A stretch of 64,000 bases of DNA from Eledone cirrhosa. Taxonomy: Eukaryota. Position 1 is the first letter of the stretch. The number at the start of each line of letters is the position of its first letter. Shown piece after piece: positions 5,601-64,000 of the stretch. A model generated the notes under the pieces. That model ran no database searches. It saw only the letters and a program-made list of their open reading frames with translations, and had not been told where the DNA came from. The stretch lies in the NCBI GenBank assembly GCA_964016885.1, contig OZ024744.1:28768001-28832000 (forward strand), written 5' to 3'. A program made the position numbers and the translations under genes.

Positions 5601-5780
5601 AGCACGTGGGACGCCATTTACTCACAATACAGAGAGATAGGGAGGGCGAGAGTGATGGAGGCAATGCCAGTGGGAAATTGGGCTATTCTGTGTTCGGACT
5701 TCGTGTACGTGAGAGATGGAGATGGCGAGAGAGATGGAGGCGATGACAGTGGGAGTTCGGCTCTTCAGTGTTCGAATACT

Positions 5781-5996
5781 GGTGATTCAGTTCGGATCTA
5801 GCTGTCGAAACGGCCGGAGCTCAGCCGTCTGGGACCTTAATCTGTTCATATATATATATATATATATAACGAAGGAATTGTGGTAAGGAACCAGATGGAC
5901 CATAACGCACCAAAGTACTCAATACTTAGGGTAGTAGAGTGGGTAATAGGAACAAGTATGACCCCGACGGCAGAGCTCAAGCCTTTCGACGGCTAT
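5781..5996. mobile_element. Two fragments of the hammerhead-bearing pLTR family, tail-to-tail across (TA)n
   Basis: 5781-5845 is the reverse complement of 3317-3378. 5868-5996 matches 18173-18270 (reverse), 32465-32600 and 34510-34549. Confidence 0.6.
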
Positions 5997-10651: not shown

Positions 10652-10684
<33 letters not shown>

Positions 10685-11328
10685 ACCACCACCATCCCCA
10701 CCACCACCACGACGAGCACCACCACCACCAACACCACCACCACCACCACCTCCACAATCACCACCATCACCACCATCACCACCACAATCACCACCACCAT
10801 CACCACCAACACCACCACCACCGCCACCACTACCACCACCACCACCACCACACCACCACCATCACCAGCAACAACAACAACAACACCACCACAACCACCA
10901 CCACCACCACTGTCAAGACAACAACCACCACCACCACCACTACCAAAACCACCGCCGCCACCAGTATCACCACTACCACTACACCTTCACCACTACCACC
11001 ATAACACCACCACTACCACTACACCAACACCACCACCTCCTCCACCACCAGCACCACCACACCACCACCACCTCCAGAACCACCACCACCACCACCAAAA
11101 CCACCACCAACAACAACACCACCAACAACAATATCAACAAAAACAAAAACAACACCACCAACACCACCACCACCACAGCACCACCACCAACACCACCACC
11201 ACCACAGCACCACCATCACCAACAACAACACAACCACCACCACCACCAATGCCACCACTACCACTACCAGCGCCACCACCACCACCACCACCACCACCAC
11301 CACCACCACCACCATCACCACCACCACC
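8633..11328. repeat. 2.7-kb degenerate (CAC)n trinucleotide field with an internal duplication of about 0.78 kb
   Basis: CAC/CAT/CAA/TAC units; diagnostic variants recur at about 9181/9951 and 9540/10333. Confidence 0.95.
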
Positions 11329-11948: not shown

Positions 11949-13040
11949 TTGGTGCTACTGGTATCATGTATCCCAGTACAACCTGTCTCATGGTCGGGTC
12001 GTTGGCGACTAAACTGGCAACCCCACCAAGGTTTCTTGGTGAGGAGGGTGACTTTGGACATCCTGCAGGACTAAAAACAAAACCTGTCAAGGGGCAAAGG
12101 AGCTCTTAAGAGTCAATGGCCATCCAAAATCACCGGGAGAGATGACCCCTTAGCCTTTGTCAATGCAGAATTCTAGGAGGGGGAAAACTCTGATATAACA
12201 CCTGCAACCCTGATGGTATCCAATGATGTTGACTTGTTCTTCTTTTTGGTAAATATCATCTTGGTTAAGAGAGTGGGACTGGCTTTGTGCGGTGCCTTTG
12301 CTCACTATAAAAGCTTCACGGCACAAGCATTGCTTTATATCTGGAGATCTCTCTGCACTTGTCGTCACATGGTACCATGGGCCCAGCACTATGTGTCAAT
12401 AATTGTCACAAGTGTAGTGTTTGTACCAGAGTTTTCAAGTCACTGGCTGGACTAAAAAGTCACACCCGTTCAACACATCGGTAGGAGTTCTCCTACATAA
12501 ATATAAAGTAGTGGCCGTACTCGAAAACGAGTTGGCAGCCACCATGTATACGTACATCCATATATACGTACAAAGGGCAAAGGCGCTCTTAAGAGTCAAT
12601 GGCCATACAAAATCACCGCGAGAGATTACCCCTTAGCCTTTGTCAAGGCAAAATTCTAAGAGAAGGAAAACTCTGATATAACACCTGCAACCCTGATTGT
12701 ATCCAATGATGTTGACTTGTTCTTCTTTTTGGTAAATATCATCTTGGTTAAGAGAGTGGGACTGGCTTTGTGCAGTGCCTTTGCTCACTATAAAAGCTTC
12801 ACAGCACAAGCATTGCTTTATATCTGGAGATCTCTCTGCACTTGTCGTCACATGGTACCATGGGCCCAGCACTATGTGTCAATAATTGTCACAAGTGTAG
12901 TGTTTGTACCAGAGTTTTCAAGTCGCTGGCTGGACTAAAAAGTCACACTCGTTCAGCGCATCGGTAGGGGTTCTCCTACATGGATATAAAGTAGTGGCCG
13001 TACTCGAAAACGAGTTGGCAGCCACCATGTATACGTATAG
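11949..13040 (+). mobile_element. Two tandem copies of the bipartite RTE-derived element (11949-12570 full, 12571-13040 5'-truncated)
   Basis: Direct repeat; KCSVCTRVFKSLAGLKSHTRSTHR* at 12410-12484; each copy ends GGCAGCCACC-ATGTATACGTA. Confidence 0.75.
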
Positions 13041-32326: not shown

Positions 32327-32365
32327 TATATATATTATTATTATTATTATTATTATTACTATATA

Positions 32366-43320: not shown

Positions 43321-43580
43321 TACTCAGGTGTTTAAGTTCATATAAACATTGGTGTGGCGAAGGGGTAATTAATGAAATGTTATTGTACCTCTGAGGGTTT
43401 TTCTTCTCTTCAGCGATCGAATGTTTAAAAGTACGGGTGTCATCAACTATTTTACTTTTTCAATATGAGATTTTTTAAAAGAAAAGAGAGGGGGAGAATT
43501 CCGTTACTTGAAGATGGAATATCACTTTTTTGTGTTCAGTAGAGGTTTGTATTTTCTAATAAAGAATTCTTTATATTTTT

Positions 43581-43719
43581 GAACACTCCAAAAGTCATGC
43601 TTGCTGGAAACAACAAGAACCCTCCTATGCGTCCTGAATATCTGAGGATGCAGGTAGCGGCTTGATATTCATTTCAACAAACTTTCCAGTTAAATAACAT
43701 CAATGACTGAGACTCAAAG

Positions 43720-43770
<51 letters not shown>
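43581..43770 (+). mobile_element. Extreme 3' stub of an R4/Dong-like element with (TAA)n tail
   Basis: TLQKSCLLETTRTLLCVLNI* (compare the QKxxLLGTARILR terminus of R4/Dong ORFs), a short UTR, and (TAA)n at 43722-43770. Confidence 0.65.
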
Positions 43771-43771
<1 letters not shown>

Positions 43772-44013
43772 TTTTCTTTATTAACCACAAGGGTTCACAT
43801 AAAGTAGACATTAAGGACAGTACAGGACAATACAGGACGGTACAAATGGGCATTTCTGCGTGTAAAAAAACAGAGGTTGAAATAAAATAACAAAGAAAAA
43901 TTCCCCAATAGGGGGGAGACTTCCAAGGGACATTTGTGGAGAAAGCCCATTAAAAGACCACAGTGGCCCTGACCACCAGGGCAAGTGCCCTCTCCCAGTT
44001 TTCCACCTTTAAT

Positions 44014-47000
44014 TTACAGACACATACTCAGAGAAGGCCCATTCATTCGGGCCATACTTGCTTCTCTCACCCATCTTTCAACAAAATGCTGGGAAGAGAG
44101 CACTTCCCTCTCTACCCTGATTTTCCTTTTCAAATGAAATTTGAAAAAGTTAATCAGGGCATCACCGAAGAGGTAAGTGCTCGTCTTCAGCCCTTTCAAA
44201 CGTGTCCACCATACTATCTCTTTCACCATGGCTACCAGACATAAAAACTGCCTGCCCTTCCAGGCTAAAGGAAGGGGGCGGGGCAATCCTCACGATGGAC
44301 TCAGCTGATAGCTGGATAGGTCCTACACGTGACAGCAGGTGTTCGACATAAACCCACAAGTCAGCAATGCTCGGACACTGGACGAGTGCGTGCAGGACGG
44401 TTTCGTCGCCCTGCGCGCATCTCGGACATGCCCGGCTGACGGCACCTCCATGCCTGTAGAGTTTATCCCGAACTGGCAAAGCTCCTCGGTAGCACTGCCA
44501 GGCCAGGGATTTCTGGAACTTGTCCATAGGCCCCGGCCCGAAAGTCCTTCCGAAGAGATTGGCTAGTTGATTTTCGTCGACGCCTAGAGTTTCTCCAAGT
44601 ACGTCGTCGCTCTTCCCCTCCACTAATCCCCTATAGAACGCCAAGGTGGAGTTTCCACCGATCACATTGCCCGATTGGTCGAGGGCTGTGAGCGCCTGAA
44701 GACATTCCAGTCTCCAAGCGCTCCCTCTCGGTCTTCGCTTGACCCAGGACTGCAGCTCCGTCAAGGAGACGAGCTGGGGAAAAACATGTCTTGCAAACGA
44801 CGACCACACCTGATCACCGTGGAGGTAGAGGTGGAGATGTCGTAGCCTGAGCGCGTGTCTGCGCATCATCAGCCACGGCATGCCCAGCCCTCCACGTAGC
44901 GGGTGTTGACAGCAGATGGACCGCCTGACCATCGGAGCGCGTCCCTTCCACAAGAAGCGAAAGAGCAAACGCTCCAGCGCAGTCAGGCGGGGCTTAGGAC
45001 AAGGTACGACGGTCAGGCGGTAGTAGATGACGGATGCGATGTACGCATTCGCCACCTCCGCTCGACCTTTCAGGGATAGCTTCCTCTCGGCCCATTTCTG
45101 GGTGAGAGAAGCCACCCTGCTCGTCACCTCGTCCCAGTTTTTGTCCGTCTGGAGGTCTGGACCGAACCAGACCCCTAGCAATTTAACCGGTCCGTCCGTC
45201 CAGCGCCCGACGACGCTGTTGGACGGCATGGACCTGCCTCTCCAGGTGCCGAGCTGCAGGCCCACTGACTTTTCCTGGTTGATCATTGCTCCTGTCACCG
45301 CTTCGTATTCTCTTAGTGTAGTGCCGATCGCCTCGATGTGTTTGGCGTTCGACACCACTACGGTGACATCGTCGGCATATGCTGACACGGATCTTCCGCA
45401 TCCTAGTTCGCGCGGGAGCCCCCTCAACGTCTCCAGTTTGTGCAGTAATGGCTCGAGAGTCAATACGTACAATAGGGACGAGAGGGGACATCCTTGGCGG
45501 ACCGAGCGCATGATGTTGAACGGTTCCGAAAGGTGACCGTTCACTATCACTACAGAGCAGATGTCGCTGTGCATGGCAGCGATCCAGCCTCTGAAGACGG
45601 GCCCAAAGCCAGCCGCCCTCAGGACTGCCGTTAGGTAACGATGGTCGACCCTATCGAAGGCTTTCGACTGATCTAAATTGATCAAAGACCCACCTGTGCC
45701 AGGTTCCCTAGCTACCCTCTCTACGATGTATCGCATGAGGTGGAGGTTGTCGTGGATGGATCTGTCGAGAATGGCGCATGTCTGTGCCTCTCCCACCAGA
45801 CCACCAACGACAAGCGCCAACCTCTTTGCTAGCACCTTGGCCAAAATCTTGAACTCTGTGTTTAGCAGAGTTATGGGCCTAAAATTATCTATGTTATCCC
45901 CCTTGTTCGGATCCTTTCTCAGCAGCGCCACCGCTCCTCGGCTCACAGAGCTGGGAATTCTCCCGTTCTGTTGCCAGTTGCAGTAGACGTCCGCCAAGAG
46001 GCCTCCGAACAAGTTTGGCATTTGTACGTAAAGTTCATAGGGCAGACCATCCAAACCAGGCGATTTACCCCTTGTGCAACTAGTCATTGCATCCCGTACT
46101 TCAGCGGTTGTTATCGGCTTTTCGCAACACTCCGCCTCAGTGGCCGAAAGCCGCGGCAGTCCGTCGAGGTAGACACTAAAGTCCATCCCTCTACCCGGCC
46201 CGCCACTGCCCCCGAACAGTTGAGCGAAGTGTCGCTGAAAAGCTTCACACATTTGCCCGGGATCGAGTAGCATGCGCCCGTCGTGGTCCACCAAAGACCG
46301 GATCGTGGCTTTGTTGCCACGACGCGCCTCCGCCACTCGGGCCCATTGAACGGCTTTCGTCCCCTCGTGTCTGAGAGCGCGCACCCTATTCTGACAACGC
46401 AGCCTTCGTGCTTTGCATTGAAGAATTGTTCAAGGGCCAATTTCGCCGCAAGTACGTCGGTCGCGATGCCTTTGCTAAGCGCCTCATCTAATTTTCTAAC
46501 TAGTTCTCCCTCTGCTCTATTTTTCTCTATTGCTAAAGTCTTACTAAACCTAATGGACTCTATTCTAATTGCTCTTTTCAGAGCAAACCACCACTTGTTG
46601 TTGACGATGGCCCCCGTCAACGCCCGCTTAACTAGTTCGCTAATCCGGTCTCTGTAGGCCTTGCGCGCTGGTAAGGACGCGTTTAACTTCCAGTAGCCGG
46701 GTCCTCGTCTATGAAGCCTATCTAAGTCAAGCACACAGATCACGAATTTGTGGTCCGTGTAGCTGACTATCTTGAATTGTGGACAGCCTATGCTAGACCT
46801 ATCTATTTCCCTACAAAATACTCTATCTAGATATGATCTGGATGACCCTATGCGATTTGTCCAATTCCACATTGGTACATTCGGGAAATCCATTCGGTAC
46901 CTGTCAGACAGTTCAAAACGTCTGAGCAGGTTGGTGAGACTCTTGCACCCTCCTTCCCTATCCACTAATCCCACACAATCCCAGCGTGCATCTAAGATCC

Positions 47001-47430
47001 CGTTCCAGTCGCCCACTAACACTAAAGAGCGGGACGTTCCAAGAAAGGTCTCCAGACGCCGGAAGAAATCAGGCCGCCCTGCTCCTGTCGGGGCATAGAC
47101 GGCCACTAACCTGAAAGCTAGCCCGTCTCCGCTGGTGACGTCCAGCACCACCAACTTACCTTCTGGGTCCAGGAAGATGGCCCGTATGGGAAGATCCAAA
47201 CCTCTCCGAAAAAGCACAGCAACTCCTCCCCCCGATCCCGGACGGCTGGGAGATGCGTACACATCGTAGCCGCCGAAGATCGGTGCGAAAGCCTGTGCTT
47301 CGGAGATTCTGGTCTCGCTGATGGCCACTACATCTATGTTTAGTGACCTGAGGTCGTTGAGCAGGTGGCCCTGCTTCCATGAAGACCCCAAGCCACGCGC
47401 ATTTATGCTGCCTATTCTGAGTGAGGTCAT
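44014..47430 (-). CDS. ORF2: APE endonuclease, reverse transcriptase and C-terminal zinc finger (frameshifts near 46388 and 44240)
   Basis: SINARGL, AISET, VGDWN, SYLDRVF, TDHK; GPGYWKLN; SPGLDGLP, FRPITLLN, LDQSKAFDRVDH, VRQGCPLS, YADD; CPRC..ETVLHALVQC. Confidence 0.92.
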
Positions 47431-47464
47431 GTTGAAAAGGAGTGGAAAAGATGGGAAAGACCAC

Positions 47465-49454
47465 TTACCTTACTTCTCGTAGGGGAAGGACGGCTTTTCC
47501 ATCCTTTTCACTGCTTGTGGCCTCCTCAGGAAGGATGTCCTTATAAATCCTCCTGGAGAGTGCTTGTCGGAAGTCTCCGATGTCTTTGGGGAATTTTTGT
47601 TTTAGTGTCATGTACGTTTTCTGTGTGATGCGAGTGATTTGTATGTGTGGAGGTGGTGTGAATTTTGGGGTTGTTGTGTAGTCTTTTTCTGTGATGCTGG
47701 TGTTGTGTTGGATGTAGTGTAATAATTGCTTGTTCAAATTTAATGCTGTGTAGTGTGTATCGTTTTGGTTGTTTTGTTTTGTTTGCGTTTGTTGTGGGTT
47801 TGTTTCTGTTTCGCATTTTGGTGACTTTTGTGGTGTAGGTGATTGTGGTGCTGGGGATAATGATGGTGATGGTGTTGGTGTTTGGGTTGATGGGGTTGGT
47901 GATGCTGGTGTGGATGGTGGCATATTTGTCCTAACTTTTTTGTTTCTTAGTTTATTTGTTTCCCTCTGTATTTTGTTTTTGGAGGGGGAAGGAAGAGAAT
48001 TTTTTCTTTTTTGGTTTCTTTTTTTTTCCGGATATCGTTTCCCACTCCTCGTCGTCACAATCTGTCTCCAGTTGTGATAGGCCGGGGAGTGGAAAATCCT
48101 CCACAGCCGTTAGTTTTGGTTGTGGTGTGGTGGATGGTGTAGGCGCTGGTGCTAGTTCTGAAGCGTTGGGTGGTGTTGGTGTTGGTTTTGCTGGTGGTGG
48201 TAGTGGTGTTGGTTTTGCTACTGTTGCTGGGGTTGTTGCTGTTATAGTTGCTTCTGTTGTTGCTGCTACAGTTGTTGCTGCTATCTCTGCTACTGGTGGT
48301 GTTGATGGTTGTGTCACTGGGGTGGGTAGGAGAGGTGGCCTCAACCTTTTAGCCTGAGGGCAGAAAGCCCTTAGGTGCGTTCCTTCACCACAAACGACAC
48401 ACCTAGGTCTTCTGCCCTCGACAATTACCGTGAGGTGGCTGCCGTCAGTGAGGTCTATTACCTCTGGGATCTCCTCAATGCTTTTTTGGTCCGCTTGGAT
48501 CAGGAGCTCCATCCCAGATCCGGACCAGTTTTCCTGCTTTTCTTTTGCTACTGCTATTATTTTCGTGTTGGCTTCGATGCCGGCGAGGACAGCCGCTATT
48601 AGCCAGGGAATTTCGATGGCCGGTGGAACGTGGGTCACCCTGATCTTTACGAGTCTCTGGCCACAATAGCTTGGGACGAGTGTGAAGTCGTCACTTCTTA
48701 ATGGGGCCATGGAGTGTTCTCTAGCCTCCTCTGGTGTTTCAAAGAACACATCCACGGTTCCATACTTTTGCCCACGTCTGATGTGGGTTTTTCTTGCCCA
48801 CACATGTCCCAAAGCTTTTTGGATTTGGGACTCCGATGCCCGTTCCACTCGGCGCGATTTTACATTTATTGTTCTATACGACACGGTGCACAGGCGCCGA
48901 TGCTCCATTTTATTAGGTGGGGGGGGGGGGGTGAGGCTGACCCTGTACCCATCTTTCTTTACCATTTGTTTGGCATTTTCTAAATCTTCTTGAGTTACCG
49001 TGAACGCTTCGAATTGTTTTGCTACGATGGCGAAACTGAGGGTTGGTTTTATAATGTCATTGTTGTTGTTGTTGCTATCGTTAATATTAATTTTATTTTC
49101 AGTTGTGGTGGTGGTGACGTCTGTCGTCTTTGGTGGGGAAGAGTCCATTTTGCTTGATTTCATTTCGACGTCACGAGTTAATTTATTTTTTTCTTCTTTT
49201 GTTTCTGTTGTCGCGGTGGTGGTGGTGGTGGTGGTTGTCGCGGTGGTGGTGGTGGTGGTGGAGGGTTTAACACCTGCAGTCATTGGTAATGGCGGGAAAT
49301 GAATGTCTGCCTGAGACAAATTTAAAATATTGCTACTGCTTATATTTTTTTTTGTGTTGGCAAACGTAGTAACATTTACAATGGTGGTGTCGGTGTGAGG
49401 TGTTATTTTGTGAGGAAGGCTTTCAGCTGCTTCGTGCAGAGGGGAATTAGCCAT
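47465..49454 (-). CDS. ORF1: gag-like nucleic-acid-binding protein with a single CCHC knuckle (frameshift in an A-run near 48025)
   Basis: CVVCGEGTHLRAFC (CX2CX4HX4C) and Pro/Thr-rich linkers; the C-terminal part is contiguous in copy 2. Confidence 0.85.
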
Positions 49455-49690
49455 TTTTTTTCAAAGAAATTTTTGGATAATAATAAAAGTTAAAATTTTG
49501 GGCACAAGGCCCCAATCTTTTTGGGTGTCCTTTTCGGAAAACAATGTATGTGTGCTTATAAACAGTTTACAATAAAATTTTCCATAAATGGCAATTTTTA
49601 AACAAACGGAAATAACAAACCTTTGCGGAGCTCACGATAATACGATTTCCTACGTAGGTCGCCAATAATAATAATAATAATAATAATAAT

Positions 49691-52600
49691 TTCTTTATTA
49701 ACCACAAGGGTTTACATAAAGTAGACATTAAGGACAGTACAGGACAATACAGGGCGGTACAAATGGGCATTTCTGCGTGTAAAAAAACAGAGGATGTAAT
49801 AAAAATATCAACGACAAATTCCCCAATAGGGGGGAGACTTCCGAGGGACATTTGTGGAGAAAGCCCATTAAAAGGCCACAGTCACCCTGACCACCAGGCC
49901 AATTGTCCTCTTCCAGTTTTCCACCTTTAATTTACAGACACATACTCAGAATAGGCCCATTCACTCGGGCCATACCTGCTTCTCTCACCCATCTTTCAAC
50001 AAAATGCTGGGAAGAGAGCACTTCCCTCTCTACCCTGATTTTCCTTTTCAAATAAAATTTGAAAAAGTTAATCAGGGCATCACCGAAGAGGTAAGTGCTC
50101 GTCTTCAGCCCTTTCAAACGTGTCCACCATACTATCTCTTTCGCCATGGCCTCCAGACAGATAAAAACTGTGCCCTTCCCGGCTAAAGGAAGAGGGCGGG
50201 GCAATCCTCACATTGGACTCAGCTGATAGCCGGATCCGTCCTACACGTGACAGCAGGTGTTCGACATAAACCCACAAGTCAGCAATGCTCGGACACTGGA
50301 CGAGTGCGTGCAGGACGGTTTCGTCGCACTTCCCGCATCTCGGACATGCCCGGCTGACGGCACCTCCATGCCTGTAGAGTTTATCCCGAACTGGCAAAGC
50401 TACCCGGTAGCTCTGCCAGGCCAGGTATTTCTGGAAGTTGTCCATAGGCCCAGGCCCGAAAGTCCTTCCGAAGAGATTGGCTAGTTGATTTTCGTCGACG
50501 CCTAGAGTTTCCCCAAGTACGTCGTCGCTCTTCCCCGCCACTAATCCTCTATAGAACGCCGAGGTGGAGTTTCCACCTATCACATTGCCCGATTGGTCGA
50601 GGCCTGTGAGCGCCTGAAGACATTTCAGTCTCCAAGCGCTCCTTCTCGGTCTTCGCTTGACCCAGGACTGCAGCTCCGTCAAGGAGACAAGCTGGAGAAA
50701 GACGTGTCTAGCAAACGGCGACCACACCTGATCACCGTCGAGGAAGAGGTGGAGATGTCGTAGCCTGAGCGCGTGTCTGCGCATCATCAGCCACGGCATG
50801 CCCAGCCCTCCACGTAGCGGGTGTTGACAGCAGATGGACCGCCTGACCATCGGAGCGCGTCCCTTCCACAAAAATCGAAAGAGCAAACGCTCCAGCGCAG
50901 TCAGGCGGGGCTTAGGACAAGGTACAACGGTCAGGCGGTAGCAGATGACGGATGCGATGTACGCGTTAGCCACCTCCGCTCGACCTTTCAGGGATAGCTT
51001 CCTCTCCGCCCATTTCTGGGTGAGAGAAGCCACCCTGCTCGTCACCTCGTCCCAGTTTTTGTCCGTCTGGAGGTCCGGACCGAACCAGACCCCTAGCAAT
51101 TTAACCGGTCCGTCTGTCCAGCGCCCGACGGCGCTGTTGGACGGCATGGACCTGCCTCTCCAGGTGCCGAGCTGCAGGCCCACTGACTTTTCCTGGTTGA
51201 TCATTGCTCCTGTCACCGTTTCGTATTCTCTTAGTGTAGTGCCGATCGCCTCGATGTGTTTGGCGTTCGACACCACTACGGTGACATCGTCAGCATATGC
51301 TGACACGGATCTTCCGCATCCTAGTTCGCGCGGGACCCCCCTCAACGTCTCCAGTTTGTGCAGTAATCGCTCCAGAGTCAATACTTACAGGAGGGACGAG
51401 AGGGGACATCCTTGGCGGACCGAGCGCATGATGCTGAACAGGTCCGAAAGGTGACCATTCACTGTCACCACAGAGCAGATGTCGCTGTGCATGGCAGCGA
51501 TCCAGCCTCTGAAGACGGGCCCAAAGCCAGCCGCCTTCAGGTCTGCCGCTAGGTAACGATGGTCGACCCTATCGAAAGCTTTCGACTGATCTAAATTGAT
51601 CAAGGACCCACCCGTGCCAGGCTCCCTAGCTACCCTCTCTACGATGTATCGCATGAGGTGGAGGTTGTCGTGGATGGATCTGTCGGGAATAGCGTCTCTC
51701 CCACCAGACCACCAACGACAAGCGCCAACCTTTTTGCTAGCACCTTGGCCAAAATCTTGAACTCTGTGTTTAGCAGAGTTATGGGCCTAAAATTATCTAT
51801 GTTATCCCCCTTGTTCGGATCCTTTCTCAGCAGCGCCACAGCTCCTCGGCTCACAGAGCTGGGAATTCTCCCGTTCTGTTGCCATTTGCAGTAGACATCC
51901 GCCAAGAGGCCTCCGAACAAGTCTGGCATCTGTACGTAAAGTTCATAGGGCAGACCATCCAAACCAGGCGATTTACCCCTTGTACAGCTAGTCATTGCCT
52001 CCCGTACTTCAGCGGCTGTTGTCAGCTGTTCGTAACACTCCTCCTCAGTGGCCGAGAGCCGCGGCAGTCCGTCGAGGTAGACACTAAAGTCCATCCCTCG
52101 ATCGGGCCCGCCGCTGCCCCCGAACAACTGAAAGAAGTATTGCTGAAAAGCTTCACACATTTTCCCGGGATCGAGTAGCATGCGCCCGTCGTGGTCCACC
52201 AAAGACCGGATCGTGGCTTTGTTGCCACGACGCGCCTCCGCCACTTGGGCCCATTGAACGGCTTTCGTCCCCTCGTGTCTGAGAGCACGCACCCTAGCTC
52301 TGACAACGCAGCCTTCGTGCTTTGCATTGAAGAATTGATCAAGGGCCAATTTCGCCGCAAGTACGTCGGTCGCGATGCCTTTGCTCAGCGCCTCGTCTAA
52401 TTTTCTAACTAATTCTCCCACTGCTCTATTTTTCTCTGTTGCTAAAGCCTTACTAAACCTAATGGACTCTATTCTAATTGCTCTTTTCAGAGCAAACCAC
52501 CACTTGTTGGCGATGGCCCCCGTCAACGCCCGCTTAACTAGTTCACTAATCCGGTCTCTGTAGGCCTTGCGCGCTGGTAAGGACGCGTTTAGCTTCCAGT

Positions 52601-54760
52601 AGCTGGGTCCTCGTCTATGAAGCCTATCTAAGTCAAGCACACAGATCACGAATTTGTGGTCCGTCTATACTAGACCTATCTATTTCCCTACAAAATACTC
52701 TATCTAGATATGATCTGGATGACCCTATGCGATTTGTCCAAGTCCTCATTGGCACATTCGGGAAATCCAATCGGTAGCTGTCAGACAGTTCAAAACGCCT
52801 GAGCAGGTTGGTGAGGCTCTTGCACCCTCCTCCCCTATCCGCTAATCCCACACAGTCCCAGCGTGCATCTAAGATCCCGTTCCAGTCGCCCACTAACTCT
52901 AAAGAGCCTGATGTTCCAAGAAAGGTCTCCAGACGCCGGAAGAAATCGGGCCGCCCTGCTCCTGTCGGGGTATAGACGGCCACTAGCCTGAAAGCTTGCG
53001 TCGCCGCTGGTCCCGTCGAGCACCACCAACTTACCTTCTGAGTCCAGGAAGATGGCCCGTATGGCGAGATCCAAACCTCTCCGAAAAAGCACAGCAACTC
53101 CTCCCCCCGATCCCGGACGGCTGGGAGATGCATACACATCGTAGCCGCCGAAGATCGGTGCGAAGGCCAGTGTTTCGGAGAATCTGGTCTCGCTGATGGC
53201 CACTACATCTATGTTTAGTGACCTGAGGTCGTTGAGCAGGTGGCCCTGCTTCCATGACGACCCCAAGCCACGCTCATTTATGCTGCCTATTCTGAGTGAG
53301 GTCATGTTGAAATGGAGTGGAAAAGATGGGAAAGACCAATTACCTTACTTCTCGTAGAGGAAGGATGGTTTGTCCATCCTTTTCACTGCTTGTGGTCTCC
53401 TCCGGAAGGATGTCCTTATAAATACTCCTGGAGAATGTTTGTCGGATGTCTTTGGGGAATTTTTGTTTTAGTGTCATGTACGTTTTCTGTGTGATGCGAG
53501 TGATTTGTATGTGTGGAGGTGGTGTGAACTTTTGGGTTGTTGTGTAGTCTTTTTCTGTGATGCTGGTGTTGTGTTGGATGTAGTGTAATAATTGGTTGTT
53601 GTTCAAATTTAATGCTGTGTAGTGTGTTGTTTTGGTTGTTTTGTTTTGTTTGCGTTTGTTGTGGTTTGTTTCTGTTACGCTTTTTGGTGACTTTTGTGGT
53701 GTTGGTGATGGTGGTGTTGGGGTTAATGATGGTGATGGTGTTGGTGTTTGTGGTGATGGGGTTGGTAATGCTGGTGTGGATGGTGGCATATCTGTCCTAA
53801 CTTTTTTGTTTGATAATTTATTTGTTTCCCTCTGTATTTTGTTTTTGGAGGAGGAAGGAAGAGAATTTTTTCTTTTTTGGTTTCTTTTTTTCTTTTTTCC
53901 TGATACCGTTTCCCACTCCTCGTCGTCACAATCTGTCTCCAGTTGCGATAGGCCGGGGAGTGGAAAATCCTCCACAGGCGTTGGTTTTGGTTGTGGCGTG
54001 GTGGATGGTGTAGGCGCTGGTGCTAGTTCTGGCGCGTTGGGTGGTGGTGGTGTTGGTTTGGCTACTGTTGCTGGGGTTGTTGCTGTTATAGTTGCTTCTG
54101 TTGTTGCTGCTACAGTTGTTGCTGCCATTTCTGCTGCTGGTGGTGTTGATGGTTGAATCACTGGGGTGGGTAAGAGAGGTGGCCTCAACCTTTTAGCCTG
54201 AGGGCAGAAAGCCCTTAGGTGGGTTCCTTCACCACAAACGACACACCTAGGCCTTCTGCCCTCGACGATTACGGTGAGGTGGCTGCCTTCAGTGATGTCT
54301 ATTACCTCTGGGATCTCCTCAATGCTTTTATGGTCCGCTTGGATCAGGAGCTCCATCCCAGATCCGGACCAGTTCTCCTGCTTTTCTTTCGCTATTTCGA
54401 TTAGCTTGGTGTTGGCCTCGATGCCCGCGAGGACGGCAGCCATTAGCCAGGGATTTTCGATGGCCGGTGGAACGTGGGTCACGCTGATCTTCACAAGTCT
54501 CTGGCCACAATAGCTTGGGACGAGTGTGAAGTCGTCACTTCTTAATGGGGCCATGGAGTGTTCTCTGGCCTCCTGTGATGTTTCAAAGAACACGTCCACG
54601 GTTCCATATTTCTGCCCACGTCTGATGTGTGTTTTTTTTGCCCACACATGTCCCAAAGCTTTTTGGATTTGAGACTCGGATGCCCGTTCCACTCGGCGCG
54701 ATTTTATGTTAATTGTCCGATAAGACACAGTGCATAGGCGACGATGCTCCATTTTATTAG

Positions 54761-54791
<31 letters not shown>

Positions 54792-55506
54792 GGGGCTGAC
54801 CCTGTATCCATCTTTCTTTACTATTTTTTGGCCTCTTCTAATTCCTCCTGAGTTACCTGGATCGCTTCGCACGTTTTTGCTACTCTGGCAAAACTGAGGG
54901 TAGTTTTCTTAATTTCATTGTTGCTATTGTTGTTATCGTTATTTTTGTTATTGTTAATTTTAGTTTCAGTTGTGGTGGTGGTGGCGTCACTGGTGTTCGG
55001 TGTGGAAGAGTTCATTTTGGTTAAATTCATTTCGATATCACGAGTTAATTTATTTTTTTCTTTTGTATCTGTTGTCGCTGTGGTGCTGGGGGTGTTGTCG
55101 CTGTGGTGGTGGTGGCGGCTTTAACACCTGCAGTCTTTGGTAATGGCGGGAAATGAATGTCTGGCTGAGACAAATTAAAAATATTGCTACTGCTTATATT
55201 TTTAGTGTTGGCAAACGTAGTAATATTTACAATGTTGGTGTCGGTGTGAGGTGTTAGTTTGTGAGGAAGGTGTAACTCTGTGCCGGCCATGATTTTTCAA
55301 AGACATTTTTTTGGTTTGATAATTATAAAAAGTTTAAATTTTGGGCCCAAGGCACCAATATTTTTGAGTGTCCTTTTCAAAAATCAATGTATGTGCACTT
55401 ATATACAGTTAACAATAAAATTTCTCCATAAATGGCAATTTTAAACAACTGAAAATAACAAACCTTTGCGGAGCTCACGTTGATACGATTTACTACGTAG
55501 CTCGCC
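49691..55506 (-). mobile_element. Full-length Tx1-like element, subfamily A copy 2 (ORF1 about 55290-53340, ORF2 about 53305-49932, several frameshifts)
   Basis: Colinear with copy 1; same 5' junction TTATT|GGCGA; (AAT)n at 49664-49690 and 55507-55560. Confidence 0.92.
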
Positions 55507-55557
<51 letters not shown>

Positions 55558-55560
<3 letters not shown>

Positions 55561-55704
55561 GGCATGCTTGCTGGGAACAGCAAGAACCCTCCGATACGTC
55601 CTAAATATCTGAGGCTGCAGGTAGTGGCTTGATATTCATTTCAACAAACTTTCCAGTTAACTAACATCAATGACTGAGACTCAAAGAACAATAATAATAA
55701 TAAT
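55558..55704 (+). mobile_element. Second R4/Dong-like 3' stub, flanked by (TAA)n on both sides
   Basis: KACLLGTARTLRYVLNI*; colinear with 43592-43721. Confidence 0.7.
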
Positions 55705-56360
55705 GATTTCTTTATTAACCACAAGGGTTTACACAAGGTAGACATTAAGGACAATGCAGGACAATACAGGACGGTACAAATGGGCATTTCTGCGTGTAAA
55801 AAACAAAAACAGAGGTTGTAACAAAAAATAACAATGAAAAATTTCCCAATAGGGGGGGGAGACTTCGGAGGGACATTTGTGGAGAAAGCCCATTAAAAGG
55901 CCACAGTGACCCTGACCACAAAGGCAAGTGCCCTCTCCCAGTTTTCCACCTTTAATTTACAGACACATACTCAGAGTAGGCCCATTCACTCGGGCGATTC
56001 TTGCTTCTCTCACCCATCTTTCAACAAAATGCTGGGAAGAGAGCACTTCCCTCTCTACTCTGATTTTCCTTTTCAAATGAAATTTGAAAAAGTCAATCAG
56101 GGCGTCACCGAAGAGGTAAGTGCTCGTCTTCAGCCCTTTCAAACGTGTCCACCATACTATCTCTTTCGCCATGGCCACCAGACAGATAAAAACTGCCTGC
56201 CCTTCCCGGCTAAAGAAAGAGGGCGGGGCAATCCTCACGATGGACTAAGCTGATATCTGGATCCGTTCTACACGCGACAGCAGGTGTTCGACATAAACCC
56301 ACAAGTCAGCAATTCTCGGACACTGGACGAGTGCGTGCAGGACGGTTTTGTCGCCCTGCA
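55705..56360 (-). mobile_element. 5'-truncated Tx1-like subfamily A copy 3
   Basis: 3' UTR plus ORF2 C-terminus; the truncated end abuts (TAA)n at 56361-56376. Confidence 0.9.
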
Positions 56361-56371
56361 TAATAATAATA

Positions 56372-56472
56372 ATAATTGATTCTACTTCAGGCACAAGGCC
56401 AGCAATTACCCAGTTCATTACTGGTACTTTATTGTATCGACCCCGTAAGGATGAAAGGCAAAGTCAACCTCG
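56372..56472 (-). mobile_element. SINE 3' half inside the Tx1 array
   Basis: TTCTACTTCAGGCACAAGGCCAGCAATT...GGCAAAGTCAACCTCG. Confidence 0.8.
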
Positions 56473-56477
56473 AATGC

Positions 56478-59396
56478 TTTCTTTATTAACCACAAGGGTT
56501 TACATAAAGTAGACATTATGGACAGTACAGGACAATACAGGACGGTACAAATGGGTATTTCTGCGTGTAGAAAACAAAAACAGAGGATGTAACAAAAAAA
56601 AACAATGAAAAATTCCACAAACGGGGGAGACTTCCGAGGGACATTCGTGGAGAAAACCCATTAAAAAGCCACAGTGACCCTGACCACCAGGGCAAGTGCC
56701 CTCTCTCAGTTTTCCACCTTTAATTTACAGACACATACACAGAGTAGGCCCATTCACCTCTCTTTCCCATCTTTCAACAAAATGCTGGGAAGAGAGCACT
56801 TCCCTCTCTACCCTGATTTTCCTTTACAAATGAAATTTGAAAAAGTCAATCAGAGCATCACCGAAGAGGTAAGTGCTCGTTTTCAGCCCTTTCAAACGTG
56901 TCCACCATACTATATCTTTCGCCATGGCCACCAGACATATAAAAACTTCCTGCCCTTCCCGGCTACAGCCGGGCAAGCCCGTGTTTTGCGTTGAAGGATT
57001 GGTCGAGTACCAATCTCGCCGCAAGCACGTCGGTTGCGATATCTGTTCTAAACGCCTCTTCTAGCTTTCTGAATAGCTCTCCCTCTACTCTATTTTCCTC
57101 TATCACAAATCCTTTGCTAAACCTCATCGACTCTACTTTAATTGCCCTTTTAAGGGCGAACCACCACCTGTTGTTGACGACCGCTCCCGTCAACGCCCGC
57201 TTAACTAATACGCTAATCCGGTCTCTGTAGGCTTTGCGACGCGTTCAGCTTCCAGTAACCGGGTCCTTGTCTATGAAATCTGTCTATATCGGTCTCACAG
57301 ATCATAGATTTACGGTCTGTGTAGGCGACTATTTTAAATTGTGGACAACTTATCTGGTTCTCTGCAGAATACCCTATCGAGATACGATCTGGATGACCCG
57401 ATGCGGTTTGTCCATGTCCACATTGGCACATTCGGGTGAACCAGTCGATCGTATCAGACAGTTCAAAACGTCTGAGCAGGTTGGTGAGGCTCTTGCACCC
57501 TCCTCCTCTATCCACTAGCCCCACACAAGCCCAGCGTGCATCCAAGATACCGTTCCAGTCGCCCACTAACACTAAAGAGCGGGACGTTCCAAGAAAGGTC
57601 TCTAGACGTCTGAAGAAATCTAGCCGTCCTGTACCTGTCGGTCCTGTCCCTACTAGCCTGAAAGCGTTGCCTTCGGTGCCTCTTACGTCCAGCACCATCG
57701 ACTTACCTTCTGGGTCCAGGAAGATGGTCCGTATGGCGAGACCCAAGTCTTTCCGAAACAACATAGCCCCCCCCCCCTCCCGAACGTTTCGGAGATGCGT
57801 ACACCTCGTAACCGTCGAAGGTCGGTGCGAAAGCTTGCGTTTCGGAGATTCTCGTCTCGCTGAGGGCCACCACATCTATGTTTAGTGACCTGAGGTCGTT
57901 AAGCAAGTGACCCTGCTTCCAAACCGACCTCAAGCCACGCCCGTTTACACTTCCGATCCTGAATACGGCCTTGTTGGGTGAGAAACGGGGCTAGTGAGAA
58001 AGGATCACTTACCTTGATCGTATGGTGAAGGGACAGTAGAACCGTCCCTTTTGCTAGTCATGGGTGTTTCCAAGAGGATGTCAGTGTATATCCTCTTAGC
58101 AACCGAGCCTCTGAAGTCTCCAACTACGTTGGGGAATTTTTGTTTTAGAAGTTTGTACTGTTCTATTTTGATATCAATTAAGCTTATGTTTGTCAGTAGA
58201 GTTCTTGGAGTTGGTGGGGTGTAGTAGTTTTTTTCTGTGATGTCTGTGTGCTGCTTTATATATTGTATGAGTTCTTTTTTTTACCATGTTTATGGCTGTG
58301 TACTTTTAGGGGGAGGGTGATTTTGTTGTTGTTGGGTGTGTGTGTTTTATTGTGTTTGCGTTGTTGGTGGTTTTGGTGATGCTGGTGGTGGCGTGGTTGT
58401 TGTTGGCGGTGGTGCTTGGGGTGGTGATGGTGTTGGTGGTGGCGTCGCTGCAAGTCTCCTTGCAGCCTTTACCCCTCTTTGTGTGCCTTCGGGTTTTTTC
58501 TTTTTTCATTTTTTTTTGCAGACCGTTTGCCACTTCACTCCTGCCTCAAACTCCATGTCGGATTCCGTGGCGTCTGGGAGGTGTTTGTGCTCCACGGCTA
58601 TTGGTGGTGGTAGTGGAGCCCTCTCCGGCGATTTTGTTGCTGTTGCAGCTACTGCAAATGTAGCTACTGGTGTTGCCGCCACTGCTGCCGCTGCTTTAGT
58701 TGTCCGTGGCCTTGGTACGGGTGCTACGGACGTTGCCCTTCTACTCACCGTGGAAGGGGCTTCTGCGTTGTTGCCTGCCCTGCTCTTGGTAGCAGCGGAC
58801 CAGGTATTGGAAGGAGAGGGGCCTTTTTCTTCGCTGTCTTCTGGGGGCAAAAGGCCCTGAGGTGACCCTTTGACCCACAGAGATAACAATTTGGCCGTCT
58901 TCCTTCCACGCTTATAGGGAATTGGAGTCCTTCCTCGAGGTCTATGATATCGGGGATAGTGTCGATACACTCCTGGTCAGTATAAGCATTTGCATGCCTA
59001 TACCTGACCAGTTCTCTCTCCCTATTTTCTCTACTTGCAGCATGGTCGCCCCGTCCTCGATTCCAGCAAGGACAGACGCGGCCAGCCAAGGTATGGGCAC
59101 GTTGAGTGGAACCTGGGTCACTTTGACTCCCTCTCTCTGTGATGTCTGACAGCACTCTCTCACTTTATTGTGTTATCCATATTGAAAGAAATCTTTTTTT
59201 CGAATAATGTTTTTACACAATACTCAACCCATAAAGTGGTGCCGTATTATTTACGAGTGAACCCCTGTGTTAGGTGGGTCACTTCTTCTAAACTTTTGTC
59301 AAGTTTAAAACTTGAATAAAAGGTTTAGAACAGTTGAAAATGAGGTAAACTGTTGAAAAAAAGCTGGAGGCGATAATAAGCGTGGCTTCACCTTCA
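56478..59396 (-). mobile_element. Composite Tx1-like unit: subfamily A 3' end (56478-56965) joined to subfamily B 5' UTR, ORF1 and endonuclease (56980-59396); RT deleted
   Basis: The 3' part matches copies 1-3; ORF1 (CYLCGSKGHLRAFC, LPDATESDMEFEAG) and the endonuclease match copy 5. Confidence 0.8.
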
Positions 59397-59419
59397 AATA
59401 ATAATGCTTTCTTTTAATT

Positions 59420-59470
<51 letters not shown>

Positions 59471-62400
59471 TTGATTTCTTTATTGGCCACAAGGGCTGAC
59501 ATCAAGAAAAACATCACAGACGGAACAGGACGGTACGATGTGGGTTTTGTGCGTGTAAATATTTTTATTATTTATATAAGAAAAGAAAAAAGACATAAAA
59601 CATATATATATATATAAACAATAAAATGAAAATTGAAACAATGAAAAATTCCCCAATAGGGGGGAAACCTCCGAGGGTTACTCGTGGCGAAAACCACACA
59701 AAAGACCACGGCCACCCTGACTACCAGGGCAAGCGCCCTCTCTCAATTTTTCCATCTCTCAAACTACAGACGTATATTCAGAGTGATCCCGTTCACTCGG
59801 ACCATTCTCGCTACATTCACCCACCTTTCAACAAACTTGCTAGAAGACAGCACTTGCCTCTCCACCCTGATTTTCCTCTTCAAGTGAAACTTGAAAAAGT
59901 TAATCAGGGATTCGCCGAAGAGGAAAGTGTTTGTCTTTAATCCTTTTAACCTTGTCAACCACACAATCTCTTTCGCCATGGCCACCAGGCAGATGAAAAC
60001 CGTCTGCCCTGCCTCCTCAAAGGAAGACGGCGAAACCATCTGCACAATGGACTCAGTCGACAACCGGATCAGTCCAACACGTGACAGCAACTGTTCGACA
60101 TAGCTCCACAATTCAGCAATGCTCGGGCACTGAACGAGTGCGGGCACAACGGTTTCGTCGCTATGCGCGCATCTCGGACAGGCTCGGCTGACAGCACTTC
60201 CGTGCCTGTAGAGCTTATCTCGAACCGGCAGCGCTCCCCGGTAGCACTGCCAGGCCAGGGATTTTTGGAAGTTATCCATAGGCCCCGGGCTGAAAGTTCT
60301 CCGGAAGAGAGCAAGTAGTTGATCTTCTTCGACGCCCAGGATCTCTCCGAGAACGTCGTCGCTCTTCCCCTCCACTAGTCCTCTATAGAACGCCGAGGTG
60401 GATGTTCCACCGATACTGGTGCCCAACTGGGAGAGGGCAGTGGGCGCCTGGAGACATTTCAGTTTCCAAGCGCTATCCCTCGGTCTTTTTCTGATCCAGG
60501 ACTGCAGCTCCGTCAAGGAGACGAGCTGTGGGAAAATGTGCCTGGCGAACGGCGACCTCACCTGTTCACCATCAAGGAAGCACCAGAGATGTCGCAGCCT
60601 CAGCGCATGTTTGCGCATCATCAGCCATGGCATGCCCAGTCCTCCACGCAACGAGTGTTGACAGCAGATGGATCGTCTGACCATGGGAGCGCGTCCCTTC
60701 CACAAAAAGCGGAAGAGGAGGCGCTCCATTTTGGTGAGAGTTGGGCTGGATCAAGCGACGACGGTGAGGCGGTAGCAGATGACGGACGCGATGTACGCAT
60801 TCGCCACTTACGCCCGGACTTTCAGGGACAGCTTCCTCTCAGCCCATTTCTGGGTGAGGGAGGCCACCCTGCTCGTCACCTCGTTCCAGTTTTTCTCCAT
60901 CTGGAGGTCGGGTCCGAACCAGACCCCGAGCAATTTAACCGGTCCGTCCGTCCAACGCCCCACGACGCAGTCGGACGGCATGGACTTGCCTCTCCAGGTC
61001 CCTACCTGCAAGCCCACCGACTATTCCTAGTTTATCCTTGCTCCTGTCACCGTTTCGTATTCCTTGAGAGCGGTGCCGAGCATCTGGATGTGCCTGGTGC
61101 TCGACACCACCACGGTAACGCCGTCAGCATAAGCCGACTCGGATTTCCCGCATCCTAGTTCGCGTGGGACGCCCCTCATTGCCCCCAGTTTGTGCAGTAA
61201 CGGCTCGAGAGCCAATACGTACAAGAGGGACGAGAGGGGACAACTCTGGCGGACTGAGCGCATGATGTTGAACGGCTGCGACAGGTGAGCGTTCACCCTC
61301 ACAACTGAGCAGATGTCGCTGTACATTGCTGCGATACAACGCCTGAAAACGGGCCCGAAACCGGCTGCCTCGAGGGCCGCCGCCAGGTACCGATGGTCGA
61401 ACCTATCGAATGCTTTGGATTGATCCAAGTTGAACAGGGCCCCACCCTTGCCAGGTTCCTTAACCACCCTCTCTATGATGTATCGCATGAGGTGGAGGTT
61501 GTCGTATATGGATCTGTCCGGGATGGCGTATGTCTGCGCCTCTCCCACCAGACCCTTGACGACAAGCGCCAACCTCGTTGCTAACACCTTGGCCAAAATC
61601 TTGAACTCTGCGTTTAGCAAGATTATGGGCCTGAAGTTATCGATAACATCCTCCTTGTTCGGGTCTTTTCTCAGCAGCACCACCGCTCCCCGGCTCACAA
61701 AACTGGGAATGCTCCCGTTATGCTGCCAGTTGCAGTAGACGTCTGCCAAGAGGTCACCGAACAAGTCTGGAATAAATGCATAAAGCTCGTAGGGCAGACC
61801 ATCTAAACCTGGCGATTTACCTCTTGTGCAGTTAGCCATCGCTTCCCGTATTTCACCGGCTGTTATTGGCTTTTCGCAACACTGTGCTGCGGTCGTCGAG
61901 AGCCGAGGCAGTCCGTCGAGGTAAGCACTGAAGTCCATGCCCCGATCCGGGCCGTCACCGCTCCTGAACAGTTCAGCAAAGTGCTGCTGAAAAGCTTCAC
62001 ACATCCGCTCGGGTTCGAGCATCACGTACCCGTTTTGGTCAGACAAAGACCGAATTGTGGCTTTATTGCCACGTCGCGCCTCTGCCACCCGGGCCCATTG
62101 GAGGGCTTTTGTCCCCTCGTGTTTCAGAGCACGCGCTCTAGCTCTGACAACGCAGCCTTCGCGTTTTGCGTTGAAGAATTGGTCGAGTGCCAATCTCGAC
62201 GCAAGCACGTCGGTTGCGATGCCTGTCCTAAACGCTTCTTCTAGCTTTCTGACTAGCTCTCCCTCTACTCTATTTTCCTCTATCACTACTCCTTTGCTAA
62301 ACTTAATCGACTCTACTTTAATTGCCCTTTTCAGGGCGAACCACCACCTGTTGTTGACGCCGCTCCTGTCAACGACCGCTTAACTAATACGCTAATCCGG

Positions 62401-64000
62401 TCTCTGTAGGCCTTGCGCGCCGGGAAAGACGCGTTCAGCTTCCAGTAACCAGGCCCTTGTCTATGAAGTCTGTTTATGTCGATCTCACAGATCACAAATT
62501 TGTGGTCTGTGTAGTCGACTATTTTAAATTGTGGACAACCTATACTAGCCTTATCTAGTTCCCTGCAGAATACCCTATCTAGATACGATCTGGATGACCC
62601 GATGCGGTTTGTCCATGTCCACATTGGCACATTCGGGTGATCCAGTCAATACCTGTCAGACAGTTCAAAACGTCTGAGCAGGTTGGTGAGGCTCTTGCAC
62701 CCTCCTCCCCTATCCACTAGCCCAACACGATCCCAGCGTGCATCCAAGATACCGTTCCAGTCGCCCACTAACACTAAAGAGCGGGACGTTCCAAGAAACG
62801 TCTCTACACGTCTGAAGAAATCTAGCCGTCCTGTACCTGGCCGTCCTGTCCCTGTTGGGGCGTAGATGGCTACTAGCCTGAAAGCATTGTCTTGGCTGCC
62901 GGTCACGTCCAGCACCACCGACTTACCTTCTGGGTCCAGGAAGATGGCCTGTATCGCGAGATCCAAACCTCTCCGAAAAAGGACGGCAACCCCTCTCCCC
63001 GATCCTGGACGGCTGGGAGATGCGTATACATCGTAGCCGCCGAAGATCGGTGCGAAGGCCCGTGCCTCGGAGATTCTGGTTTCACTGATGGCCACCACAG
63101 GTCATTAAGCAGGTGACCCTGCTTCCAAGATGACCCCAGGCCACGTGCATTTATACTGCCTATTCTGAGTACAGCCATGTTGGATGAGAAACGGGGCAAA
63201 TGAGAAAGGGTCACTTACCTTGTTCGTGTGGTGAAGGGACTTTAGAACCGTCCCTTTCGCTGGTCATGGGTCTTTCCAAGAGGATGTCAGTGTATATCCT
63301 CTTGGTAACCGTCCCTCTGAAGTCTCCAACTGCGTTGGGGAATTTTTGTTTTAAAGGTTTGTATTGTTCTATTGAGATTTCGATGATGCTTATGTTTGTC
63401 GGGAGAGTTCTTGGTGTTGGTGGGGTGTAGTAGTTTTTTTCCGTGATGTCTGTGTGCTGCTTTATATATTGTATGAGTTCTTTTTTTGCCATGTTCATGG
63501 CTGTGTACCTTTTTAGGGGAGGGGTGATTTTGTTGCCGTTTTCTTCTTGTTGCTGTTTGGTGTGTGTGTCTTGTTGTGTTTGCGTTGTTGGTGTTTGTGG
63601 TGGTGTTGCTACAAGTTTCCCTGCTGCCTTTACCCCTCTTTGTATGCCTTCGCTTTTGGAGGGTGAATCTAAGGTTTTTTTCTTTTTTGTTTTTTTGTGG
63701 CAGACTGTTTGCCACGTCACTCCCGCCTCAAACTCCATGTCGGATTCTGTGGCGTCTGGGAGGGGTATGTGCTCCACGGCTGTTGGTGGTGGTAGTGGAG
63801 CCTTCTTCGGCAATGTTGTTGATGGTGTAGCTATTTCAAATGTAGCTATTGGTGTTGCCGCTACTGATGATGCTGCTTTATTTATCCGTGGCCTTGGTAC
63901 GGGTGCTACGGACGTTGCCCTCCTACTCACCGTGGAAGGGGCTTCTTCGTTTGTTGCCTGTCCTGCTCTTGGTAGCAGCGGACCAGGTATTGGAAGGAGA
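59471..64000 (-). mobile_element. Tx1-like element subfamily B copy 5 (ORF2 about 63178-59764, frameshifted; ORF1 C-half 63211 to window end)
   Basis: APE, RT (YADG variant) and CPRC..C motifs; distinct ORF1 and 3' UTR; (TAA)n tail at 59421-59470. Confidence 0.9.

Follow-up and report, generated by a model that had tools for sequence, protein, structure and literature searches.

A one-way stack of L1/Tx1-type LINEs, likely specific for (ATT)n repeats, in the octopod Eledone cirrhosa

Layout of the LINE array

The stretch analysed here, called the window, comprises 64,000 nucleotides of Eledone cirrhosa contig OZ024744.1 (positions 28,768,001 to 28,832,000 of the forward strand; assembly GCA_964016885.1). 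From position 43576 to the window end, and for at least 10 kb further (more than 30 kb), it contains a one-way array of long interspersed nuclear elements (LINEs) of the L1 type, which lie head to tail on the minus strand with only (TTA)n stretches between the L1-type copies. The unit map was made by comparing the region with one full-length copy, A1, and the junctions were then read directly. All (TAA)n tracts named in a first-pass annotation of the window were recovered by Tandem Repeats Finder and a pattern scan. The 12-mer TAATAATAATAA occurs 55 times in the window against 0.06 expected, and outside the array it is found in three short places only (17712, 32335-32358 and 40659).

Read 5' to 3' on the minus strand, the first unit is U5 (59471-64000 and beyond), a family-B LINE of 5,991 bp in all that is approximately 80% identical to A1. 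Its 5' end lies 1,461 bp past the window, behind (TTA)9 and the 3' end of another copy, and its tail is (TTA)16.7 (59421-59470). A 15-nt fragment resembling the A-type 3' terminus (59406-59420) and then (ATT)3 (59396-59405) follow on the same strand. The unit counted as the fourth of five in the first-pass annotation is not one element. It consists of a B-type 5' part of about 2.4 kb without its 3' part (U4a, 56976-59395), the 5' end of which lies against the (ATT)3, and an A-type 3' part of about 0.5 kb (U4b, 56476-56975). U4a is 84% identical to U5 versus 74% to A1, while U4b is 88.6% identical to A1 versus 76.5% to U5. The two are joined without any (TTA)n, most simply through a deletion across the junction of two neighbours. 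Apart from such corrections, the array described in that annotation is confirmed.

One ATT unit (56473-56475) remains of the U4b tail, which received a 5'-truncated copy of a dispersed short interspersed nuclear element (SINE; 56377-56472, minus strand). The SINE is followed by (TTA)5 (5.7 units, 56360-56376) and U3 (55705-56359, minus strand), a 5'-truncated family-A copy of 655 bp that is 92.8% identical to A1 positions 5287-5951 and whose 5' end lies against this (TTA)5. The tail of U3 is a further (TTA)5 (55690-55704). Next comes a piece of about 130 bp from a second kind of LINE, here called Dong-like, which lies on the plus strand (55558-55689) and is 95.2% identical to positions 1495-1640 of a longer genomic copy. 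The (TTA)17.7 tract at 55507-55559 lies directly 5' of two elements, A2 on the minus strand and this Dong-like fragment on the plus strand.

A2 (49691-55506, minus strand) is a full-length family-A LINE of 5,816 bp with several frameshifts. It is separated by (TTA)9 (49664-49690) from the 5' end of A1 (43771-49663, minus strand), a full-length family-A LINE of 5,893 bp and the youngest unit of the array. Open reading frame (ORF) 1 of A1 spans approximately 49460-47952 and ORF2, with two frameshifts, 47469-44017. The A1 tail, (TTA)16 on the minus strand or (TAA)16 on the plus strand (16.3 units, 43722-43770), is shared tail to tail with the other Dong-like fragment, a 5'-truncated 3' end of 145 bp on the plus strand (43576-43720; 92.5% identical to positions 1480-1640 of the longer copy), beyond which lies unique DNA.

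The 10 kb that follow the window contain a further two truncated copies, which adjoin (TTA)10 and (TTA)4, and at least 1.64 kb of a Dong-like element on the plus strand is followed by two more Tx1-like copies. Both flanks of each array unit are high-copy repeats. When the window was searched with an intact ORF2 using tblastn, matches were confined to 44017-63181; the (TA)n, (CA)n and (CAC)n tracts contain no copy, as noted in the first-pass annotation, and neither do the other microsatellites of the window.

The LINE families

The ORF2 of one intact genomic copy encodes an apurinic/apyrimidinic-type (APE) endonuclease domain (Exo_endo_phos, E 1.4e-13), a reverse transcriptase (RT) domain (RVT_1) and zf-RVT (E 8e-8). 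Its closest relative of solved structure is human L1 ORF2p (E 1.9e-51, residues 21-868), the match covering both endonuclease and RT; R2 proteins match the same ORF2 at 1e-20 over the RT only. Searched by itself, the endonuclease domain finds structures of L1 endonucleases (E 1e-5 to 5e-4); up to E 10, its list of matches includes no endonuclease of TRAS1 or R1. ORF1 contains a CX2CX4HX4C knuckle. Judged by these predicted domains, with an APE endonuclease, an L1-like RT and a C-terminal Cys-rich domain, families A and B belong to the L1 superfamily. They lack the C-terminal restriction-like (PD..D..K) motif and so fall outside Dong/R4. Membership of the Tx1 clade would fit these features.

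Protein relatives of ORF2 were sought in a full HMMER search (61,590 matches) and in a word-indexed search (11 matches, one with an informative name). A coral relative with 32% identity carries the automatic name 'Transposon TX1 149 kDa protein'. The nearest named proteins, with 59-66% identity, come from the octopod Argonauta hians and are labelled 'hypothetical protein'. In the limpet Patella caerulea, 11 near-identical relatives (30% identity to ORF2) have consecutive locus tags on one contig, and a related LINE may be stacked in tandem there too. Between 46 and 85% of sampled words from the 3' 2 kb of A1 are present in contigs from runs of three other organisms, so near-identical copies of A1 may exist in related species or samples.

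ORF2 is open across 1,152 codons in 6 of 34 genomic copies, which would indicate recent activity. A third Tx1-like family (L092, L102, L114) is 95-97% identical to family A from approximately position 2150 onward. Its 5' 2.1 kb, comprising the 5' untranslated region (UTR) and ORF1 and starting GAATGCCATGG, is unrelated to family A, and it looks like the product of a swapped front module. The same type of 5' start also follows a tail in L066.

In all families AATAAA stands approximately 10 nt ahead of the (ATT)n tail (window 43771-43790, 49691-49710 and 59471-59490). If this signal is used, the transcript would be cut and polyadenylated within or just past the repeat, and priming would start inside the RNA tail, not at its very end.

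5' junctions across the genome

A1 and A2 begin identically, at ...ATTATT|GGCGA; direct reading thus bears out the common junction reported in the first-pass annotation. The flanks of further copies were surveyed across the 3.0-Gb genome. A 120-nt ATT-free query from A1 gave 1,861 candidates for the family-A 5' end; 40 of 40 places matched it at 100%, and 39 of these are also perfect matches to a query opening with ATTATTATT. In all 31 loci that were read, (ATT)n stands ahead of GGCGACC; the number of perfect units ranges over 2-28 (median 11).

A sample drawn from the 3' end (40 places, with the upstream DNA then fetched) is unbiased for the 5' flank. It contains 31 full-length copies of family A and three of the variant family starting GAATGCCATGG, and (ATT)n adjoins all 34. 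The remainder are two truncated copies that abut (ATT)n, three that do not (L066, L078 and L106, the last with about two units) and one unassigned place. Family-B copies start with one or two G followed by TTGGTGAAGCC, and their 5' ends lie against (ATT)n in 29 of 29 cases, not counting the window's own copy. For the variant family the figure is three of three.

Truncated copies were surveyed in 158 de-duplicated loci, which hold 90 copies with a 3' end; 23 of these have an inner 5' boundary inside the locus. Five were set aside as non-truncations (three of the variant family, one inner duplication and one SINE in the 5' UTR). Among the 18 that remain, 10 abut (ATT)n of at least two units, two lie within 5-10 nt of such a tract and six do neither. 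This survey leans towards arrays, many of its copies having been found beside sampled ones. U3 and the two truncated copies just past the window likewise abut (TTA)n. As the first-pass annotation had anticipated, the 5' flanks of truncated copies are therefore enriched for the repeat genome-wide. In a control region (window 1-43500), ATTATTATT precedes 13 of 87,000 positions and ATTATT 100 of 87,000, which puts the chance of an (ATT)n flank at approximately 1 in 7,000 to 1 in 1,000. A 5' sequence of the element itself cannot account for this upstream repeat.

No target-site duplications other than of the repeat were seen at the junctions read. Truncated 5' joints often open with T or TT, continuing the repeat, and may show microhomology. 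In L076, a 174-bp truncated A copy has a short piece from the end of another family ahead of it, and the same 28-nt imperfect AT-rich stretch lies on both sides; either the stretch is a target-site duplication of unusual length or a repeated family produces the match by coincidence.

A LINE has been counted as microsatellite-specific when the same sequence type occurs in more than 20% of its flanks, as set out in the text of PMC4494074. Here one microsatellite adjoins 100% of the full-length 5' ends and 10-12 of the 18 truncated ends, far above that threshold. Target-specific insertion is typical of the Tx1 clade, though not universal in it.

Independent insertion and stacking

The units of the array are closer to dispersed copies than to their neighbours. 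A1 is 98.9-99% identical to dispersed copies versus 91.65% to A2, next to it. The best match of A2 elsewhere in the genome is 95.2-95.7%, and the nearest relatives elsewhere of U3 and U5 are approximately 95% and 96% identical, respectively. Parts of U4, the oldest, reach about 91%. The units were therefore inserted separately and at different times, and some joints were later trimmed by deletion.

The same arrangement recurs throughout the genome. The 3' end of a Tx1-like copy lies directly upstream of 12 of 30, at least 7 of 28 and 13 of 30 full-length copies in three samples; in four more family-B cases the upstream tail is that of the SINE. Approximately one in three full-length copies therefore follows immediately on the tail of another, as it should if every insertion leaves a new target. 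The first-pass annotation had the arrays growing by self-nesting. Successive insertion into regenerated targets agrees with the data; the copies are not nested, however, but stacked in each other's tails.

The SINE beside U3 belongs to a dispersed family whose other copies occupy ordinary sites, are bounded by target-site duplications and close with a short ATTAT. The first-pass annotation placed U3 against (TTA)n behind a SINE, which is correct, and took the tract for the SINE's tail; the SINE's own end is usually just ATTAT. Four of 30 SINE copies (in L188-L217) carry longer tracts without any LINE. All SINE-LINE 5' junctions seen (L110, L113, L168, L169, L175, L180 and the window) have at least five units. 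The mismatch between the usual SINE end and these tracts implies either that long tracts are strongly preferred or that units are added at insertion. The SINE itself is non-specific, its short ATTAT tail being merely a seed for the LINE. Among the SINE-tail loci examined for a SINE target-site duplication, L092, L110 and L113 have further copies downstream. About half of the 30 SINE copies read share one inner start point, with ATT or CATT ahead of it, and so probably form a short SINE subfamily of approximately 100 nt. The last 25 nt of the SINE resemble LINE 3' ends (CCTTGTG..A.AGAAA.CA + ATT).

A Dong-like partner on the opposite strand

The plus-strand fragments at either side of A2 and A1, absent from the first-pass annotation, both represent the 3' end of a longer element, of which there are at least 607 candidate copies. 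The ORF of a longer copy closes with the C-terminal part of an RT, a CCHC motif and the PD..D..K motif of a restriction-like endonuclease; the best relatives of solved structure for its protein are R2 proteins, and its tail is (AAT)n. The element matches the description of Dong, by which it would be placed in the R4 clade, and we refer to it as Dong-like. Its two fragments in the window do not begin at the same place of the longer copy (position 1480 for the first, 1495 for the second) and hence represent independent insertions. An origin of the pair as one duplicated piece flanking A2 and A1 was considered and rejected, since the first fragment reaches further 5'.

The association of the two kinds of LINE is common. 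Eleven of 30 family-A tails pass straight into the reversed 3' end of a Dong-like element, and four more of the 30 meet another (AAT)n-tailed family. Conversely, reversed (ATT)n-tailed elements come after about half of 29 Dong-like tails. Tx1-like and Dong-like copies are oppositely oriented in 29 of 29 loci that hold both, and no locus of the surveyed set carries Tx1-like copies on both strands.

A retroelement end was found at all of the first nine (TAA)n tracts of at least eight units on contig 1. Two of these ends are Tx1-like, five are Dong-like tails and two are tails of the other (AAT)n family. An (AAT)n-tailed family other than the Dong-like element, with the 3' end ...AAGCAAGATAAATGCAACTG, and a further repeat, ...GGGAAGAAGACGCACGAGGTG..., both occur in such tracts (L070, L072, L081, L086, and L249 at 1309 and 8125), cut at variable points beside (TAA)n. 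More than two lineages therefore use the (TAA)n repeat.

Two other repeats of the window lie outside the array. One is a degenerate (CAC)n array of 2.7 kb and approximately 908 units (8633-11328), which resembles the elements weakly and solely in the low-complexity portion of ORF1. The other is a 483-bp unit in two tandem copies that are 95% alike (12088-13037).

Proposed mechanism and alternatives

Each copy closes with its own (ATT)n tail, has the repeat on both sides and is fixed in orientation relative to the repeat strand. We propose that the array is a stack of independently inserted L1/Tx1-type LINEs of at least two families, which are likely specific for (ATT)n/(AAT)n and insert by target-primed reverse transcription; we put the probability of this reading at about 0.8. 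The APE-type endonuclease would nick the strand that carries (AAT)n, creating a 3' end that could pair with the (AUU)n tail of the element RNA and prime cDNA synthesis. Such pairing between primer and tail would fix the orientation of insertions. The new copy would split the old tract and add a new tail, making two targets of one, so that arrays lengthen. The 5' starts open with G (one or two in family B), which fits capped transcripts from a fixed start.

Several observations weigh against this reading. At the 5' joint, (ATT)n is missing from six of the 18 truncated copies. For at least three of the six (L050, L149:560 and L157:1485) an inner deletion or a junction with a neighbouring copy seems to be the cause, and L149:200, also without (ATT)n at its joint, is old with uncertain edges; L066 and L078, from the 3'-end sample, are plain exceptions. 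Every copy in the window is frameshifted, A1 included. The Tx1 label comes from domain architecture and indirect labels rather than from a tree. The usual SINE end, as described above, is only ATTAT, yet SINE-LINE tracts have five units or more. Finally, the same junctions would arise from pairing between tail and primer at nicks of low specificity.

This last point leads to the possibility that the RNA tail does the aiming, with an enzyme that nicks AT-rich DNA loosely and only those nicks that pair with (AUU)n being extended. In every family seen, tail and target are one and the same repeat; the Dong-like element, an unrelated LINE, has a complementary (AAT)n tail and uses the complementary strand; and the T or TT that opens several truncated joints could be microhomology. 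The present data do not argue against such aiming. In the literature, target choice in target-specific Tx1 and R1 elements is credited mainly to the endonuclease (text of PMC4494074), and L066 and L078, the insertions outside (ATT)n, are too few to reveal a relaxed nick spectrum. We regard aiming by the tail as unlikely, though a serious contender. A different possibility is that insertion itself creates or extends the upstream (ATT)n, for example by a target-site duplication of a few units with slippage from a stretch no longer than ATTATT. This would account for the SINE-LINE junctions, and upstream tracts, at a median of 11-12.5 units, are of much the same length as whole tails; most upstream tracts are nonetheless ordinary tails with the exact 3' ends of other elements, some SINE copies have long tracts but no LINE, and long tracts offer more sites. 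We consider this explanation improbable.

Multiplication of one element and its tail through unequal crossing-over or segmental tandem duplication, the latter named in the first-pass annotation as fatal to its model, would give the common orientation and the repeat-bounded spacing, and neighbours have indeed been trimmed by later deletion at the U4a/U4b joint and at one joint past the window. It is rejected, and appears highly improbable, because A1 is 98.9-99% identical to dispersed copies and only 91.65% to A2, and A2, U3 and U5 are also closer (95-96%) to copies elsewhere; the units moreover belong to two families and differ in truncation, and the Dong-like fragments are cut differently. 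It is just as hard to credit that these are ordinary non-specific LINEs which merely end in (TTA)n and are clustered by chance or regional preference. The I element ends in TAA repeats. Simple-repeat tails other than poly(A) are common among LINEs, according to PMC3747384. However, 34 of 34, 40 of 40 and 29 of 29 full-length 5' ends in the three samples abut (ATT)n, compared with approximately 1.5 per 10,000 by chance, and the junctions read show no non-repeat target-site duplications.

Beyond repeat-specific insertion of the Tx1-like families, the Dong-like partner points to a broader model, in which each of the two kinds of element would renew the other's landing site. Two unrelated LINE lineages may divide the strands of one trinucleotide repeat, the strand being set by pairing of an (AUU)n or (AAU)n tail, with each insertion becoming a site for both. 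In this genome, most of the long (TAA)n tracts would then be created and multiplied by retroelements, and grow into interstitial safe-harbour stacks tens of kb long. We offer this model tentatively, and think it rather more likely to need revision than to hold in full.

Relation to known elements and significance

Microsatellite-specific Tx1 families have been described in PMC4494074 and PMC3812793: Kibi in (TC)n, Koshi in (TTC)n and crocodilian families in (TTCC)n/(TTTC)n. Like families A and B, these are APE-type LINEs with an L1-like ORF2 and a single flanking microsatellite. They differ in having vertebrate hosts and other target motifs, the host here being an octopod and the target (ATT)n; by target, families A and B are thus neither Kibi nor Koshi. 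A tail that equals the target repeat is a further difference from these families.

Dong, of the R4 clade (Bombyx Dong, DongAg and DongBg), is described in PMC3812793 as specific for (TAA)n, the same microsatellite. The Dong-like fragments of the array behave as described for Dong. Families A and B differ from Dong in an N-terminal APE endonuclease in place of the C-terminal restriction-like one, in using the other strand and in a tail of (ATT)n where Dong has (AAT)n.

Head-to-tail stacks that arise as elements insert again and again into an element end or a simple repeat are known from telomeres, where they are formed by TRAS and SART in the silkworm and by HeT-A and TART in Drosophila. These are R1- or Jockey-clade elements at chromosome ends, and TRAS and SART take the two strands of (TTAGG)n in opposite orientations. 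In contrast, the stacks described here are interstitial, lie in a trinucleotide repeat and have partners with unrelated classes of endonuclease.

Thirteen L1-Tx1 and five Dong-R4 families are listed as recently active in Octopus vulgaris (PMC13282606, Table 1), and octopus LINEs of this kind are classed as L1-Tx1 in the text of both PMC13282606 and PMC8967140. These are the same two classes as in the array, and in those texts the families are described by class and count. The word 'microsatellite' is absent from PMC8967140 and appears once in PMC13282606, in a figure legend. No Tx1-type family specific for (ATT)n/(TAA)n was found in the literature searched, a scope that left Repbase, Dfam and the figures and supplements of PMC4494074 outside it.

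The general principle of target-specific LINEs is unchanged by these results, since relatives already use other repeats. An AT-only trinucleotide would be added to the microsatellites targeted by Tx1-type LINEs. The Tx1-like and Dong-like elements would form a natural pair for the study of LINE aiming, with two endonuclease classes sharing one duplex target on strictly opposite strands, and the open ORF2 in some copies makes the relative roles of endonuclease and RNA tail testable at the bench. For this genome, insertion of this kind would explain both the source of many long (TAA)n tracts and the one-way stacking of LINE-rich blocks.

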